From positions 28,581 through 92,580 of IMG/VR virus record IMGVR_UViG_2706795930_000001: a DNA stretch of 64,000 nt; one strand, 5' to 3'. Below are positions 10,953 to 36,391 of this stretch, piece after piece. Position numbers and translations under genes: made by a program. Numbering within the stretch: position 1 is the stretch's first letter; every line of letters begins with the position of its first letter. Under the pieces are notes generated by a model. It ran no database searches and was not told the origin of the DNA. It saw only the letters and a program-made list of their open reading frames with translations. This stretch comes from a virus (taxonomy: Duplodnaviria > Caudoviricetes).

Positions 10953-11315
10953 CTACCCGGCCGCCGCCTCATACTGCTCGATGATGGCATCGGGGACTCG
11001 ACCCTTCGGGTTGACCTCGATGTCATTGTTCTTTGCCCACTCGCGGACATCCTTCATGGTGTACGAGCCATTGCTGACCGCCCCGCCGCCTCCGTTTGTC
11101 GGGGCGCCTGTGGCGGGCTGTCGCTTCCGTCCGCCGACACGGGTTGCGGTCTCGGTCATCTTCTTGAACTGCTTCTCTAGCTTTGCGAAATTACTCGGGC
11201 TGACCTGGAGTTCGTAGTCGATCCCGAGCCATGAAACCGGCACGCGCACCATGGTTTCCTCGTCGAGCAGCTTGCCGTCCATGTCGTCGTAGTATTCGAT
11301 TCGGTCGCGACGCAC
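10953..11315 (-). CDS. lsr2: Lsr2-like nucleoid-associated protein
   Basis: DDMDG...IDYELQVS N-terminal domain; VREWAKNNDIEVNPKGRVPDAIIEQYEAA C-terminal DNA-binding domain; GTG with AAAGGA SD. Confidence 0.9.
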   Translation of the reverse strand: MRRDRIEYYDDMDGKLLDEETMVRVPVSWLGIDYELQVSPSNFAKLEKQFKKMTETATRVGGRKRQPATGAPTNGGGGAVSNGSYTMKDVREWAKNNDIEVNPKGRVPDAIIEQYEAAAG

Positions 11316-11359: not shown

Positions 11360-11396
11360 GCCCCGGACGGATCTCACTGGGTGATCCGGCCGGGGC
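11360..11396 (-). terminator. GC hairpin between mini-ORF array and lsr2 (putative attenuator/terminator)
   Basis: GCCCCGG-CCGGATC/GATCCGT-CCGGGGC inverted repeat; weak U-tract. Confidence 0.5.
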
Positions 11397-11397
11397 A

Positions 11398-11418
11398 CTA
11401 TGGTGGCTCTTCCTGCAC
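11398..11418 (-). CDS. mini-ORF 4: MQEEPP
   Basis: GAGGA-6 nt-GTG CAG GAA GAG CCA CCA TAG. Confidence 0.35.
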   Translation of the reverse strand: MQEEPP

Positions 11419-11427
11419 TTGCGGTCC

Positions 11428-11481
11428 TCACGTTGCACGGCGATTGTCGAGTGCTCGTGATGGTGGGTCTCGGGCGTTCAT
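11428..11481 (-). CDS. mini-ORF 3: MNARDPPSRALDNRRAT
   Basis: GAGAGGAG SD, ATG, TGA. Confidence 0.55.
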   Translation of the reverse strand: MNARDPPSRALDNRRAT

Positions 11482-11490
11482 ATTCTCCTC

Positions 11491-11538
11491 TCACTGTCGG
11501 GCCGGCGATTCGTTTCCTGGTGGGTCTCGTGCGTTCAA
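11491..11538 (-). CDS. mini-ORF 2: MNARDPPGNESPARQ
   Basis: GGAAGGAG SD, TTG, TGA. Confidence 0.55.
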   Translation of the reverse strand: MNARDPPGNESPARQ

Positions 11539-11556
11539 TCCGTCTCCTTCCTCTCG

Positions 11557-11604
11557 TCATCTCTGTCGGGGCGGGTGGGCTGGTGGGCCTCTCGGGTTGA
11601 ACAT
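11557..11604 (-). CDS. mini-ORF 1: MFNPRGPPAHPPRQR
   Basis: GAGG SD, ATG, TGA. Confidence 0.5.
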   Translation of the reverse strand: MFNPRGPPAHPPRQR

Positions 11605-11665
11605 GAACCTCATCTCTAAGTGACTGTGTTGCGTAACTTGTGAGACAGACATTAGACGAGGTTTC

Positions 11666-11745
11666 CGAGACATGCAACAGGTGGGCCAGTGTTTGCTGCG
11701 TCACTATCCGAAGAAGGGGTCCGACTGGCACTGTTGCGTGTCTCA
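11666..11745. promoter_or_regulatory. divergent promoter region with two outward-facing 14-bp operator motifs
   Basis: CGAGACATGCAACA 11666-11679 (-) and TGTTGCGTGTCTCA 11732-11745 (+). Confidence 0.7.
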
Positions 11746-11803: not shown

Positions 11804-12115
11804 TTGCCAGAAGCGCAGCGCAGGAACATCGAAGACCTCAGCGCCCCAGAGATTTACGCGGGGTTCGAGGCGGTCCTCACATGGATGGACGCCGCCGGCC
11901 GTATCGTCAGCATGCTCGACGGCTTCGGCGAGAACCAGCCCGCAGAACGCATCGAGGCGGTGCTCGATCGACTCAACACCGTCATCAACAACGCGGTCGA
12001 GGGGGTTCCCAATAGCACCCCGATCAAGGACGCGAAGGCCCCGGTTCTGGTCAGCGATGGCCGCGAGCACGACATCGTGGTCGACCTGATGGCGCGCAGG
12101 GGGCCCAGTGCCTGA
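11804..12115 (+). CDS. hypothetical protein
   Basis: TTG with GAGGAGG SD; first gene of operon. Confidence 0.65.
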   Translation: MPEAQRRNIEDLSAPEIYAGFEAVLTWMDAAGRIVSMLDGFGENQPAERIEAVLDRLNTVINNAVEGVPNSTPIKDAKAPVLVSDGREHDIVVDLMARRGPSA

Positions 12116-12368: not shown

Positions 12369-12547
12369 GCCCGTCGCTCGGTCCGATCACTCAGATCTTC
12401 ACCCACGACGAGAAGCGACGCCTGGGTCGATGCCAGGACTGTGAGTGGCACCTGCGCACCCAGGGCCACCACCCGCACTGCACGCAACGCAAGCCGAAAC
12501 CGAGGAAAGGAGGAGGACGCCAATGGCCACGATCGCAGAAGCGGTAG
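12365..12547 (+). CDS. small Cys/His-rich protein
   Basis: TTGA overlap; CxxC...HHPHC. Confidence 0.5.
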   Translation: MSPSLGPITQIFTHDEKRRLGRCQDCEWHLRTQGHHPHCTQRKPKPRKGGGRQWPRSQKR

Positions 12548-13908
12548 CCGCCCAGTCATCCTCGTCGCCATCACAGGGCGGGGGACCACGACCAACGGTC
12601 ACCACGCCCGACAATCCGATTCGCGTCAAGGAGCTGAACGCGAAACTCGGCTCCTGGATCTCGCGACTGGGGCACATCCACGTCGAGGGCCAGGTCACCC
12701 AGATCAACAAGAAGCCCGGACAGCGCACCGCGTACCTCACGCTGCGTGACCCCCAGGCGACCGCGTCCATCAACATCACCACCGACCCGGGCAAGATCCC
12801 TGCCGGACTCACCGACGGCGACCGGGTCATCATCTTCGGCAAGCCCAACCTCTGGCAGGGCCGCGCCAGCCTGTCGCTCCGGGCCCAGTCCATCGACCAG
12901 GTCGGCGAAGGTGATCTCCTCCAGCGCATCGAGAAGTTCCGCCAGGTCCTCCGCGCCGAGGGGGCAACACGCCCCGAGCTCAAACGCCTTCTGCCACTTC
13001 TTCCGCGGCGGGTTGGCCTCATCACCGGCTCGGACTCCGCGGCCCAACGCGATGTCATCGCCATGGCCTCCGAGCGCTGGCCGTCGGTCGACTTCCACGT
13101 CATCAACACTCCCGTCCAGGGACCGGCCACCGAGCGCGAAGTCGTTAAGGCTCTGGCCGCGCTCGACCGCATGCCCGACATCGACGTCATCATCGTCGCC
13201 CGCGGCGGCGGCAGCGTCGAAGATCTCCTGCCGTTCAGCGGCGAGAAGATCGTGCGCGCCGCGATCTCCTGCACCACGCCTGTCGTCTCGGCCATCGGCC
13301 ACGAGCCTGACAATCCCGTCCTGGACGACGTCGCCGACTTCCGAGCCGCAACACCGACCGACGCCGCGAAGAACGTCGTGCCCGACATGGTCGCCGAGCT
13401 GTCCGAGATCCTGGTCAAAGAGGAGAACATCGGGAAGGCGATCGCCCGGAACATCGCAGCCGAGCGGACCGAGCTGAGCATCAAGCACACGCACGTCGAC
13501 AGCCTCGGCGTCGCGATCGTCGGCCGAGAGCGGGATTCCCTGGCCACCAGTCGATCCAGCCTGCAGTGGATCATGGAGCGCAACGTCACGGCCGAGCGCA
13601 ACAGCCTCGTCCGTCTCATCCAGCAGGCGCGCTACTGCAACCCCGGCAACCGCATCGAGAACGAGTACGCCTCACTCGCCGGCATCCGCGAGCACCTCGA
13701 CGCCGTATCCCCGCGGTCCGTCATGGAACGCGGATTCTCCATCGTCGCCGACGCCAAGACCGGCTCGGTCATCACCGCCGGCGACCAGGTGTCCGGCGGC
13801 GCACGACTCACCATCACCTTCGCCGACGGCTCATCCAGAGACGTCATGGTGATGGCCGCTGCCCACGCAATCGTGGGCGTCACAACCGAAGGGAGCGAAC
13901 AGCAATGA
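12523..13908 (+). CDS. xseA: exodeoxyribonuclease VII large subunit
   Basis: OB fold (YLTLRD), VGLITGSDSAAQRD, ARGGGSVEDLLPFS, SAIGHEPD, AATPTDAA, SPRSVMERGFS. Confidence 0.95.
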   Translation: MATIAEAVAAQSSSSPSQGGGPRPTVTTPDNPIRVKELNAKLGSWISRLGHIHVEGQVTQINKKPGQRTAYLTLRDPQATASINITTDPGKIPAGLTDGDRVIIFGKPNLWQGRASLSLRAQSIDQVGEGDLLQRIEKFRQVLRAEGATRPELKRLLPLLPRRVGLITGSDSAAQRDVIAMASERWPSVDFHVINTPVQGPATEREVVKALAALDRMPDIDVIIVARGGGSVEDLLPFSGEKIVRAAISCTTPVVSAIGHEPDNPVLDDVADFRAATPTDAAKNVVPDMVAELSEILVKEENIGKAIARNIAAERTELSIKHTHVDSLGVAIVGRERDSLATSRSSLQWIMERNVTAERNSLVRLIQQARYCNPGNRIENEYASLAGIREHLDAVSPRSVMERGFSIVADAKTGSVITAGDQVSGGARLTITFADGSSRDVMVMAAAHAIVGVTTEGSEQQ

Positions 13909-14081
13909 CGTACGAAGAGGGCAAGGCCAAGCTCACCGCCATCGTCCAGGAGATCGAGCGTGGGGGACTCTCCCTCGACGACCAGCTCGCGAAGTGGAAA
14001 GAGGCCGGCGAGTTGATCGACGAGCTGGAGAAGATGCTCGGCACGTACGAGACCCGCGTCAAGGAAGGGGCTGCAGCGTGA
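13905..14081 (+). CDS. xseB: exodeoxyribonuclease VII small subunit
   Basis: TYEEGKAKLTAIVQEIERGGLSLDDQLAKWKEA; coupled to xseA. Confidence 0.9.
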   Translation: MTYEEGKAKLTAIVQEIERGGLSLDDQLAKWKEAGELIDELEKMLGTYETRVKEGAAA

Positions 14082-18029: not shown

Positions 18030-18033
18030 TGCG

Positions 18034-18107
18034 TGCCCCGGGCAGGGCTCGAACCTGCGACCTAGTCATTATGAGTGACCGGCTCTAACCGACTGAGCTA
18101 CCGGGGC
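18034..18107 (-). tRNA. tRNA with CAT anticodon (Ile2 or elongator Met), no encoded CCA
   Basis: GCCCCGG acceptor, GCTC D-stem, GGTCA-CTCATAA-TGACT anticodon arm, GCAGG-TTCGAGC-CCTGC T arm, discriminator A; C4/C5 acceptor pairs hint at Ile2. Confidence 0.92.
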
Positions 18108-18422: not shown

Positions 18423-18632
18423 ATGCTGGGGGCGAAGGTCTACCGCGGGCAGCTCGACGAGCCCACGAGCCGCGGCGAGCGGCGGTCCCTCAAGCGGCGG
18501 TGGCGGCGCGTCGAGAGCGCCCAGGCCCGGGACTGGGAGGCCGAATACATCGAGCGGGAGCCTCCGCCATGCCCCTTCGATTCGCCGGCCCTCGACGTAG
18601 ATAACCCCCCTTTCACTTTTTGTACTCATTAG
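18423..18632 (+). CDS. hypothetical basic protein (start uncertain)
   Basis: Arg-rich ORF between attP and int. Confidence 0.35.
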   Translation: MLGAKVYRGQLDEPTSRGERRSLKRRWRRVESAQARDWEAEYIEREPPPCPFDSPALDVDNPPFTFCTH

Positions 18633-18643
18633 GAGACTTACAA

Positions 18644-20029
18644 ATGGACGAGAATGGCAATCGCTCCGAATACGGCACCGGTGGCGTTCGATACCGAGCT
18701 GATCGGGATGTGTGGATCGCGGCGAAATCTGTCGAGGACGGCCGTGGCCGAAAGAAGCGGATCGAGGGCCAGGGCCCGACGAAGACTCAGGCGATCGCTG
18801 AACGTGACAAGAAGATCCGCGACTTCATCCGCGGCAAGCAGAAGACAAAAGGCAAGGGCACTGTCGCCGAGTGGCTAGAGAAGTGGATGAACGAGATCGC
18901 GGTCGACAACGTCCGCCCGACAACACTGAAGAGCTACGCGTCGGCGATCAAGTATCAGATCGTCCCGACCATCGGGCACATGAAGCTGAAGGACCTGGAG
19001 CCGGCCGACGTTCGCTTCATGCGCAAAGAGGTTGTCAACTCGTACCTAGACAAGAAGAAGGGCGTGAAAGGAGTGAAGCCTCGCGACGAGGGGACCGGTG
19101 CTCGCCGAGCGCGCTACGCGCAGGTGGTGTTGAGCAAGGCCCTCGCCGACGCGGTGACTGAAGAGATCCTCGACCGCAACGTGGCGGACAGCGCGTACGT
19201 GAAGAAGACCGCGGTGGTGGCCAAGCCGCAGAAGGCTCTGAATGCCGAGCAGGCGAAGCATCTGCTCCGCACTTCAATCGAGAACCGTGACCGGTACGCA
19301 TCGCGTTGGGCAACCGCTCTCATCACCGGCACGCGCCAAGGAGAGGTTCTCGGACTGACGTGGGACCGCGTGGACTTCACTCGCAAGGAGATCCACTTCA
19401 CCCGCCAGCTTCAGGTGCTAGAGAACGAGCACGGCTGCGGAGAACAGATTGGTGACCGCGTGTACCCGTGTGGCATGAAAGTCCCGCGTGCATGCCCTGA
19501 GCGCAAGTTCAAGGTGACCGAGGAGTGGCGCGACCAGATCGATGTTCTCGAAGGGTCGCTCGCGATGACGCCGACAAAGACGAAGATGTCCGCCCGGGCG
19601 CTGCCGATGCCCGCGCCGCTCGAACAGATCCTACGGGCGCATCAGTTGGATACCGCCGGCGAGCCGAACCCGCACAACCTTGTCTGGCACCAGGAGAACG
19701 GAAAGCCGATTCAACCGCGTGCCGACTACGAGGCGTGGGTAGAAGCGCTCGACAAGGCCGGGCTGGATCGAATCAAGCTCCACTCCACGCGTCACTCAGC
19801 GGCGAGCATCATGAGCGACATGGGTATCGACCGACAGGTGATCATGCAGATCCTCGGGCACACGAATCTGAACACCACGGCCGGTTACGCCGCGGTCGGC
19901 GACAGCTTCCGTCGCGAAGCACTCGGTCGCATGGGCGGCCTGCTGGATTTGTTCAGCGCAGCGCCGCGGGAAGTCGAAGGTGATGTGATCACCGACGACA
20001 GCCGCCAGCAGAACGTCATCGGAGCGTGA
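18644..20029 (+). CDS. int: tyrosine integrase
   Basis: TGTRQGEVLGLTW (R), TKTK (K), HSTRH, LGHTNLNTTAGY catalytic residues; N-terminal arm-binding and SAM-like domains; AGGAGA SD. Confidence 0.95.
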   Translation: MDENGNRSEYGTGGVRYRADRDVWIAAKSVEDGRGRKKRIEGQGPTKTQAIAERDKKIRDFIRGKQKTKGKGTVAEWLEKWMNEIAVDNVRPTTLKSYASAIKYQIVPTIGHMKLKDLEPADVRFMRKEVVNSYLDKKKGVKGVKPRDEGTGARRARYAQVVLSKALADAVTEEILDRNVADSAYVKKTAVVAKPQKALNAEQAKHLLRTSIENRDRYASRWATALITGTRQGEVLGLTWDRVDFTRKEIHFTRQLQVLENEHGCGEQIGDRVYPCGMKVPRACPERKFKVTEEWRDQIDVLEGSLAMTPTKTKMSARALPMPAPLEQILRAHQLDTAGEPNPHNLVWHQENGKPIQPRADYEAWVEALDKAGLDRIKLHSTRHSAASIMSDMGIDRQVIMQILGHTNLNTTAGYAAVGDSFRREALGRMGGLLDLFSAAPREVEGDVITDDSRQQNVIGA

Positions 20030-35805: not shown

Positions 35806-35910
35806 TTGACGTTGCGTGTCTCATACGCTATCACGCGAGGGTGACAAGAATCGCTGGCATTGGCCCGCCCGGGGGATTGGCTTGACGTTGCATCCCTCAT
35901 GAGACATGAT
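35806..35910 (+). promoter_or_regulatory. two tandem SigA-like promoters with operator motifs in their spacers
   Basis: TTGACG(35806)-17-TATCAC with GTTGCGTGTCTCA inside; TTGACG(35882)-17-CATGAT with degenerate GTTGCATCCCTCA inside. Confidence 0.75.
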
Positions 35911-35917
35911 TGCCGCC

Positions 35918-36391
35918 ATGTCTACGTCTAGTGATCTGCCCGAACCCTGGCATTCCGCGCTGCTCGATGCGGGATTCACGGGTCCATCGGGCGCACCGTC
36001 ACTGCGTCGACTTGCCGAGGCAATGGACGTTCATCCCTCCACGGTGTCTCGCGTAATTCGTGGCACGAATGCCCGGGGCGCTCGGCCCGAGTTCGTCCGA
36101 AATCTCGCGAAGGCGCTGAAGCGTAAGCCCGAGGTCGTCGCCGGTTGGGCGGGGGAGCAGTGGGAGTCGGGCCTGGAGGCGTATGTCCCGCCGGACGGCT
36201 CCGAGACCCTCACGCTGCGCCAGCGCGAAGCGGCCGACCGAATGATCCGCGCCTTCATCGACATCAACCGACGCGAGCGCAGTCGTCGGGCGCTCGACTC
36301 CAAGATGGTGCGCGGTCTCGCCGAGCGTCTCGGCAAGACTCGTGCCGAGGTGGCGGATGCGCTGGAGGAGATCGAGACCGTCGACGAGTAG
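35918..36391 (+). CDS. XRE-type HTH regulator, candidate immunity repressor
   Basis: SLRRLAEAMDVHPSTVSRVIRG HTH; probably leaderless (ATG 7 nt after -10); own terminator. Confidence 0.8.
   Translation: MSTSSDLPEPWHSALLDAGFTGPSGAPSLRRLAEAMDVHPSTVSRVIRGTNARGARPEFVRNLAKALKRKPEVVAGWAGEQWESGLEAYVPPDGSETLTLRQREAADRMIRAFIDINRRERSRRALDSKMVRGLAERLGKTRAEVADALEEIETVDE

Follow-up and report, generated by a model that had tools for sequence, protein, structure and literature searches.

Tandem mini-ORFs carrying a candidate RxPP ribosome-arrest motif upstream of lsr2 in a Gordonia phage and its relatives

Ribosome-dependent attenuators include the proline-codon leaders mgtL and mgtP of Salmonella and the drug-sensing leader ORFs of the erm, msrD and vmlR type. 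In phage lambda, the bar minigenes were reportedly studied by Guarneros and colleagues, and to our knowledge their physiological role was never established. Minigenes, or rare codons located early in an ORF, inhibit translation by sequestering tRNA as peptidyl-tRNA (PMC2490762), and drop-off is frequent during early elongation (PMC10192219). The RAPP-like arrest peptides include ApdA, ApdP, ApcA, SecM (which carries RAGP), CruR and the products of seven Streptomyces lividans uORFs that contain RAPP or RGPP and arrest on Streptomyces ribosomes (PMC7897499, PMC10987492, PMC10951233, PMC12992588). Mutagenesis of ApdA and ApdP found the Arg to be irreplaceable, while at the following position (x) Gly performed at least as well as Ala, and Ser, Asp, Pro and Glu were partly permissive; the arrest of these two peptides is not relieved by EF-P, and RGPP, RAPP, RDPP and RSPP are among the tetrapeptides that bacterial proteomes most avoid (PMC12992588). 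The known RAPP-like arrest peptides are 50-300 amino acids long and use 6-12 residues upstream of the motif (PMC10951233), and the same paper, discussing Woolstenhulme 2013, reports that a minimal RxPP is sufficient for arrest, with upstream residues modulating it. Ribosomes can also prevent terminator hairpins from forming, and PPX motifs affect this coupling (PMC5021804). The main papers on RAPP-type arrest that were consulted make no mention of bacteriophage.

The window, by which we mean the whole stretch of 64,000 nucleotides that was analyzed, makes up the right-hand end (64 kb) of a Gordonia phage genome of 92,580 bp. It is 98.6% identical across the window region to SpeedDemon, a Gordonia phage of the genus Bantamvirus; DatBoi, Daredevil and Mollymur are further relatives. 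Since both a tyrosine integrase and an HTH protein are encoded (Table 1), the window phage is probably temperate. ARAGORN found a single tRNA-Met gene in the window, away from the locus described here, and the idea that the array is a tRNA was accordingly dropped. An array of four mini-ORFs lies on the minus strand of a 490-nt divergent intergenic region. The gene downstream of the array is labeled Lsr2-like in the records of the relatives, and on the opposite side of the intergenic region a rightward operon starts at 11804 and extends into phage xseA/xseB.

Table 1. Positions of the mini-ORF array and associated features (window coordinates)
Feature	Position	Strand	Details
lsr2	10953-11315	-	120 aa; Pfam Lsr2 dimerisation and DNA-binding domains
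Terminator-like GC hairpin	11360-11396	-	14-bp arms, 93% complementary; 9-nt loop; weak U-rich tail
Unit 4, terminal (QEEPP after GTG)	ORF 11418-11398; with SD 11398-11431	-	SD GAGGA; EEPP without Arg; TAG 11400-11398
Unit 3 (MNARDPPSRALDNRRAT)	ORF 11481-11428; with SD 11428-11493	-	SD GAGGAG; ATG 11481; RDPP; stop 11430-11428
Unit 2 (NARDPPGNESPARQ)	ORF 11538-11491; with SD 11491-11553	-	SD AAGGAG; TTG 11538; RDPP = CGA GAC CCA CCA; stop 11493-11491
Unit 1 (MFNPRGPPAHPPRQR)	ORF 11604-11557; with SD 11557-11618	-	ATG 11604; RGPP = AGA GGC CCA CCA; stop 11559-11557
Putative leftward promoter	11649-11677	-	-35 TTGCAT 11677-11672; 17-nt spacer; -10 TAATGT 11654-11649; read from sequence
Operator copy, 14-bp motif GAGACAYGCAACAG	11667-11680		Exact match; overlaps -35 of leftward promoter
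Second operator copy	11731-11744		Over -35 of divergent rightward promoter; inverted pair with 11667-11680
Tyrosine integrase	18620-20029		Window phage
HTH protein	35906-36391		Window phage

Re-reading the sequence bore out the earlier description of this locus as four minus-strand mini-ORFs, each with its own SD, start and stop, and each encoding Pro-Pro as CCA-CCA. A purine-rich SD lies 3-7 nt ahead of the start in all four units, and the SD of unit 3 overlaps the stop codon of unit 2. The ending that units 1 and 2 had been said to share was recovered in our repeat analysis as CCGACAG, and the last stop does lie 1 nt from the hairpin. The Arg codons of units 1 to 3 are AGA, CGA and CGA, while the RGPP of unit 1 is kept in Daredevil and Mollymur with CGG as its Arg codon. 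The earlier note had considered the codons of the motif to be rare. Judged against a crude set of 62 phage genes, this is correct for CCA (8.2% of Pro codons) and for AGA (1.4% of Arg codons), whereas CGA, at 12.9%, is only moderately rare; within the same crude set CCA-CCA accounts for one of 65 Pro-Pro pairs.

The clustering of the motif was compared with chance expectation. CCACCA occurs 56 times on the two strands of the 92.6-kb genome, and only five of these occurrences have an SD together with an in-frame start at most six codons upstream; four of the five are those of the array. In 200 first-order Markov simulations, a 200-nt stretch of one strand never held more than three CCACCA, one short of the array. 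A search of four whole relative genomes for start-x-x-R-x-CCACCA returned 10 matches, nine of them in the lsr2 leader, compared to one match for the reversed control.

The same mini-ORF design was found in 10 of the phages examined, which represent at least five genera and in which Lsr2 identity falls to approximately 35%; the phages of distant genera, at that level of Lsr2 identity, carry the module at the equivalent place. Together these phages have 31 units with 23 distinct 21-nt cores. The window phage, SpeedDemon and DatBoi have four units each, Daredevil and Mollymur five each, OneUp and BrutonGaster two Arg-containing units plus one terminal unit, and ClubL, Culver and WilliamBoone a single unit each. 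Nine more Smoothievirus phages should have the module, judging from the at least 98% identity of the region. Downstream and co-directional in 10 of 10 phages is lsr2, or a membrane-protein gene followed by lsr2, and in each lineage the module, as read from the sequence, would occupy the 5' end of the transcript. The units are annotated in none of the 10 phage records; the record of BrutonGaster has an opposite-strand CDS (gp51) annotated over them, which is probably spurious.

Every one of the 31 units has an in-frame ATG, GTG or TTG located 3-6 codons before the Pro-Pro with no stop in between, and all but one (the weak unit 5 of Daredevil) have an SD-like purine run. The spacing from start to Pro-Pro is 9, 12, 15 or 18 nt, always a multiple of three. 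Of the 23 distinct cores, 19 have an Arg two positions ahead of the first Pro; this Arg is encoded by five of the six Arg codons (AGA, CGA, CGG, CGC and AGG) and is preceded by Ala (using all four GCN codons) or Thr, or in first units by Pro or Ser. The x residue in these 19 cores is Gly (six), Asp (six), Glu (five) or Ser (two), all within the set found permissive in ApdA and ApdP; the Ser is encoded by AGC in one phage and TCG in another. The Pro-Pro itself is CCA-CCA throughout (46 of 46 codons, against the 8.2% usage in phage genes). In every multi-unit array the unit that lacks Arg is the last one (EEPP twice, KHPP and PAPP).

Conservation is concentrated at the head of each unit. From the SD to the Pro-Pro, identity is 91% in DatBoi, 62% in Daredevil and 61% in Mollymur, compared to 79%, 49% and 37%, respectively, for the tails, which vary in length and overlap the next unit or fuse with it. 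Run-on units occur in DatBoi, Daredevil and Mollymur, and in DatBoi and Mollymur fusion produces ORFs of 37-95 amino acids that retain the internal SDs and starts, so that the five units of Mollymur share one 95-codon frame and each still has its own SD and start. A single long ORF on either strand was considered and rejected: stop-free frames are usual in high-GC DNA, and since the units of Daredevil follow one another at 56, 60, 61 and 68 nt, distances that are not consistently divisible by three, neither strand has a long frame that is kept.

Since the Arg, Ala and Ser codons vary while the residue is kept, selection appears to act on the peptide, and this comparison indicates that the mini-ORFs are under selection as coding sequence. 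The earlier note's proposal that these are SD-led, translated mini-ORFs acting through a stalling Pro-Pro would have been refuted, by its own criterion, had related phages conserved the DNA repeat but lost starts, frames or Pro-Pro. The comparison clearly shows the opposite, since even distant relatives keep start codons, reading frames, Arg and Pro-Pro alike. The earlier suggestion that related phages be searched for such arrays was likewise rewarded, with copy numbers from one to five and synonymous changes at Arg, Ala and Ser. We therefore think it likely that the mini-ORFs are translated and have been selected for a ribosome-stalling motif.

Pattern scans revealed no further arrays beyond these phages. 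Three pattern scans of IMG/VR gave true matches only in Daredevil and OneUp, the rest being tandem repeats or chance matches within genes. A three-unit pattern run over 185,579 species genomes hit 58 loci, of which only a few had the array signature throughout; these few were among 10 loci inspected, and all 10 were rejected, lying inside long ORFs such as those for His-rich repeat proteins. A two-unit pattern with SD gave six matches in 401 genomes, no more than expected by chance, as the reversed control gave approximately 17; we take these 401 genomes to be the order where GTDB should place Gordonia, the presumed host. The Nevillevirus phages Rabbitrun and Neville have lsr2 and lack the array; upstream of their lsr2 are an immunity repressor and a membrane-protein gene.

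The region upstream of the array has the appearance of a repressor-controlled divergent promoter region. The earlier note had placed an operator motif facing the array transcript at 11666-11679; the motif is present, with its coordinates shifted by one base (Table 1). It occurs 18 times in the window at up to two mismatches, against one occurrence expected, and copies also flank the HTH gene on both sides. The copy overlapping the leftward promoter is invariant in five phages. The 14-bp motif is probably the operator of the phage repressor, in which case the leader would be made upon derepression. A strict promoter consensus scan did not call the putative leftward promoter. Hexamers at the same spacing are found in Daredevil and Mollymur, and BrutonGaster has an equivalent (TTGACG-17-TATAGT). 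Transcription would start near 11641-11646, giving a leader from approximately 11641 to 11316, or roughly 325 nt. Inspected by eye, the 44 nt that separate the window hairpin from lsr2 showed no promoter consensus; OneUp and ClubL, also inspected by eye, have a possible promoter-like site after the hairpin which, if real, would turn the array into a small transcript of its own.

The leader is U-poor (7-11% T) and, apart from the hairpin, folds no better than shuffles (z = -0.8), and a structured RNA repeat was rejected on this basis. No alternative antiterminator or competing helix was found in the leader fold. Rfam at a permissive threshold returned nothing relevant between 9000 and 14000, excluding a known RNA family, and a rut-like, Rho-loading leader was rejected on the basis of a C/G ratio of approximately 0.7-1.3 with no C-rich, G-poor bubble.

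The hairpin that follows the array has a predicted free energy of -37.8 kcal/mol with its flanks (z = -4.0). It is enclosed by an outer helix, formed by 11408-11399 with 11352-11343, that takes in the CCACCA of unit 4. A simple terminator consensus scan did not call the window hairpin. The stem is kept within the Bantam-like group, with one compensatory pair, and each lineage has a strong hairpin (-35 to -50 kcal/mol, z from -4 to -9) after its array, although those of the Bantam-like, OneUp-like and Smoothie-like groups share no homology. OneUp has a good U-tail, whereas that of Daredevil is weak, as in the window. In seven of the 10 phages the last unit ends at the hairpin, its stop codon lying either 0-1 nt ahead of the 5' arm (1 nt from the stem in the window phage, SpeedDemon and DatBoi) or within that arm (Daredevil, Mollymur, OneUp and BrutonGaster). 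In the three Smoothievirus phages the single unit stops 19-50 nt upstream of the hairpin and is followed by the degenerate remnant of a second SD and start. A ribosome holds about 12-15 nt of mRNA downstream of its A site, and with this geometry one positioned on the final stop codon would keep the greater part of the 5' arm unpaired. Geometrically, such direct blocking is the only way in which ribosome position could control the hairpin.

Tentatively, and with somewhat more doubt than belief, we propose that ribosome occupancy of the leader sets hairpin formation and hence the expression of lsr2. The leader would be the 5' part of an early leftward transcript, probably under the phage repressor. 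Each internal unit (SD, start, x, Ala or Thr, Arg, x, Pro, Pro) would load one ribosome and arrest it five to six codons in, by a mechanism of the RAPP/RGPP type in which the two Pro codons would occupy the P site and the A site, respectively. The parked ribosome would cover its own start site, so that a second ribosome could neither load nor collide. At the terminal unit, with its Pro-Pro and no Arg, there would merely be a transient pause or slow termination, during which the ribosome at the terminal stop would hold the 5' arm of the hairpin open; hairpin formation would limit transcription or translation into lsr2, or in other genera into the membrane-protein gene and lsr2. Only three to four residues precede the Arg, and arrest on a six-residue chain is inferred, as are termination at the hairpin and the direction of regulation. 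The links to EF-P and to tRNA-cleaving host defences that had been put forward in the earlier note are hypothetical, and for RGPP the one to EF-P is doubtful because RAPP/RGPP arrest is described as refractory to EF-P (PMC12992588).

Several observations speak against the proposal of a leader switch. It does not need several Arg-containing units, nor does it explain the constant CCA. The abutment of stop and hairpin is not universal, given the three Smoothievirus phages, the U-tails are weak in the window and in Daredevil, the terminator scan did not call the hairpin, and no antiterminator fold was found. The short stretch ahead of the Arg, compared to that of known arrest peptides, and the possible promoter-like site after the hairpin in OneUp and ClubL also count against it.

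A second possibility, which we regard as doubtful and yet deserving of a hearing, is that the array acts in trans as a short, terminated early RNA that parks ribosomes in the manner of bar. Each unit would capture a ribosome and two of the minor tRNA-Pro(UGG), one in the P site as a six-residue peptidyl-tRNA-Pro and one in the A site as Pro-tRNA-Pro, or alternatively drop-off would free the peptidyl-tRNA. Early in infection this would deplete or gauge the host's supply of this tRNA, its ribosomes or its rescue factors and so alter host translation. This is the only explanation that directly accounts for the constant CCA-CCA, and it is in keeping with the variable copy number, the loose geometry between unit and hairpin in Smoothievirus, the strong hairpin ending the array in every lineage, an operator-controlled promoter that would switch on at repressor loss, and the tRNA sequestration and early drop-off described above. 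Against it, the phage genes themselves use CCA (8%), and no tRNA-Pro, Pth or EF-P encoded by the phage was found. A few parked ribosomes per RNA would also make a small sink unless the RNA were very abundant, and the retention of the terminal stop at the hairpin in seven of 10 phages suggests a role in cis.

It is unlikely that the units serve chiefly as a 5' mRNA stabilizer, with parked ribosomes shielding the leftward early transcript, including lsr2, from RNase J or E. Parallels exist in the stalled ribosome of erm leaders and the polypurine stabilizer of phage SP82. A very strong polypurine SD with arrest close to the start would keep one ribosome over the site, several units would provide redundancy, and the otherwise unstructured, U-poor leader and the 5'-terminal placement of the module in all lineages would also fit. 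Such a function nevertheless leaves unexplained the hairpin, the Arg-free last unit that adjoins it and the constant CCA.

More improbable still is a repeat that functions untranslated, either as DNA, with 20-nt repeats about 60 bp apart binding a protein in the manner of an iteron, partition site or operator, or as an RNA sponge, the mini-ORFs being incidental. CCACCA is invariant at the nucleotide level, the spacings of 57-69 nt are near whole helical turns, and the divergent regulatory region is rich in operators, all of which such a repeat would lead one to expect. It would not be expected to accumulate wobble-type changes that preserve the residue at Ala, Arg and Ser codons, to vary its start only among ATG, GTG and TTG behind an SD and never acquire a stop before the Pro-Pro, to change the distance from start to Pro-Pro only by multiples of three, or to confine x to an arrest set defined by experiment; nor did it give an Rfam match or a structure signal. 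Finally, the idea in the earlier note that short Pro/Arg-rich peptides act in trans, for example on the ribosome like proline-rich antimicrobial peptides, is scarcely credible. In its favor, three lineages have unit 1 peptides rich in Pro and Arg. Against it, conservation is lowest in the tails (37-79%, against 61-91% for the heads), which differ in sequence, in length and even in frame, units fuse or run on freely into the longer ORFs of DatBoi and Mollymur, and OneUp-type peptides are only 8-9 amino acids long.

If the units do arrest ribosomes, with a nascent chain of six residues, no shorter natural RxPP arrest peptides would be known, and neither a tandem arrangement nor a phage example would have been reported before. 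An RxPP core with almost no tunnel context would then be enough for a regulatory stall on actinobacterial ribosomes, and the units would offer a compact natural tool to park ribosomes. The absolute choice of CCA-CCA points to an undescribed role of the tRNA isoacceptor in arrest. Should the leader control lsr2 as proposed, expression of a nucleoid-silencing protein of the phage would depend on how host translation stands when derepression occurs; should the array instead capture ribosomes and tRNA in trans, a natural translation trap that is isoacceptor-specific and works through the nascent chain would be seen in a virus for the first time. The element is unannotated in more than 20 sequenced SEA-PHAGES genomes, and the hosts are easy to grow.

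The earlier note knew of no described phage system like this. That statement needs qualifying, as the lambda bar minigenes and the RAPP/RGPP uORFs of bacteria come nearest to it. The bar and synthetic minigenes are likewise SD-led ORFs of a few codons with a rarely used codon, for which peptidyl-tRNA on a minor tRNA is expected. The bar ORFs have two codons, however, and act through termination and drop-off without an arrest motif, whereas the phage array has a conserved motif for nascent-chain arrest, tandem repetition and a hairpin and gene linked in cis. With attenuators such as mgtL, mgtP, erm, msrD and vmlR the array shares a short SD-led leader ORF and a pause site just before a hairpin (a terminator in the attenuators, terminator-like here) and gene. 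It differs from them in having several independent ORFs, in that no alternative antiterminator or anti-antiterminator fold was found, and in that its motif is one of intrinsic arrest, where leaders of the mgtL and erm type sense a drug, an amino acid or Mg2+.

The closest likeness is to the RAPP-like arrest peptides, which have the same R-x-P-P core with an essential Arg and x drawn from the permissive set, and which likewise precede a gene of the same orientation, in an actinobacterial setting. In that family the motif lies near the C-terminus of a secreted or membrane protein and translocation frees the arrest. This trait is absent from the phage units, which have only 6-17 codons with the motif at residues 4-8 and contain no signal peptide or membrane segment, so that no pulling force could release them. 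Three to four residues precede the Arg, in contrast to the approximately 6-12 that contribute in RAPP-like peptides, and the units are followed by a terminator-like hairpin and not by the SD-masking helix of RAPP-like systems. They also differ from these peptides in being carried by phages, in their tandem arrangement of one to five units and in their invariable use of CCA-CCA. Taken together, and judged from the sequence, the array looks like a set of RAPP-like arrest peptides reduced to 6-17 codons and arranged in tandem, which phages carry next to a hairpin and which use a single Pro codon.

Across the 10 phages compared, the Pro-Pro of every mini-ORF unit is written CCA-CCA (46 of 46 codons), while synonymous variation occurs at the Ala, Arg and Ser codons adjoining it. 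CCA accounts for just 8.2% of the Pro codons in a crude set of 62 phage genes. This invariance is unaccounted for by any reading of the cis-switch, in which ribosomes parked on the leader would control passage through the hairpin into lsr2. The Pro-Pro-Ala codons of unit 1 are also the reverse complement of GCTGGTGG, the E. coli Chi octamer. Since no Chi of this sequence is known from Gordonia, the match is probably coincidental.

Past their single Arg unit, the three Smoothievirus leaders (L014, L093 and L094) contain a conserved AAAGGAG followed by (C/T)TG-(A/C)AC-GC. This element is similar to a second unit's head with the RxPP lost, and it looks like a decayed copy. In BrutonGaster a CDS, gene 51, is annotated opposite the array, and because its reading frame is not kept in relatives it is probably a mis-call.

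The asymmetric 14-bp motif GAGACAYGCAACAG was found in 18 copies over the window vs approximately one expected, and copies lie on both sides of an HTH gene. In its pattern the motif resembles operators, or 'stoperators', through which the phage repressor would act across the genome. Elsewhere, genes for the two exonuclease VII subunits (Pfam Exonuc_VII_L and Exonuc_VII_S) are present in the phage; in relatives they are annotated only as 'exonuclease'. ARAGORN reported a tRNA-Met and, outside the window, a tRNA-like gene whose anticodon was left undetermined.

Locations of the features described, in the window unless another locus is named
Feature	Location	Remark
CCA-CCA units	11398-11604	minus strand
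Chi octamer match	11579-11586	plus strand
GAGACAYGCAACAG, full spans	11667-11680, 11731-11744	
GAGACAYGCAACAG, further copies	14252, 26062, 28844, 33117, 34525, 35809, 36498, 37965, 42321, 48456, 49500, 56558, 60622, 61552, 61940, 63177	
HTH gene	35906-36391	
Exonuclease VII subunits	12445-14081	
tRNA-Met	18033-18107	
tRNA-like gene	genome 5072-5144	
AAAGGAG element	L014:~855-890	
BrutonGaster gene 51	L012:666-896	76 aa; strand opposite array
Membrane-protein gene, Oneupvirus/Smoothievirus	L011:993-1466, L012:979-1479, L014:1032-1478	
Nevillevirus arrangement	L010:622-1410	

Gene order around lsr2 was also compared with that in other genera. Oneupvirus and Smoothievirus carry, downstream of the hairpin and ahead of lsr2, a gene for a membrane protein of approximately 150 amino acids. 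The temperate Nevillevirus phages lack the array, and genes for an immunity repressor and for a membrane protein come before their lsr2; the array therefore sits in the slot taken by the repressor gene in Nevillevirus.
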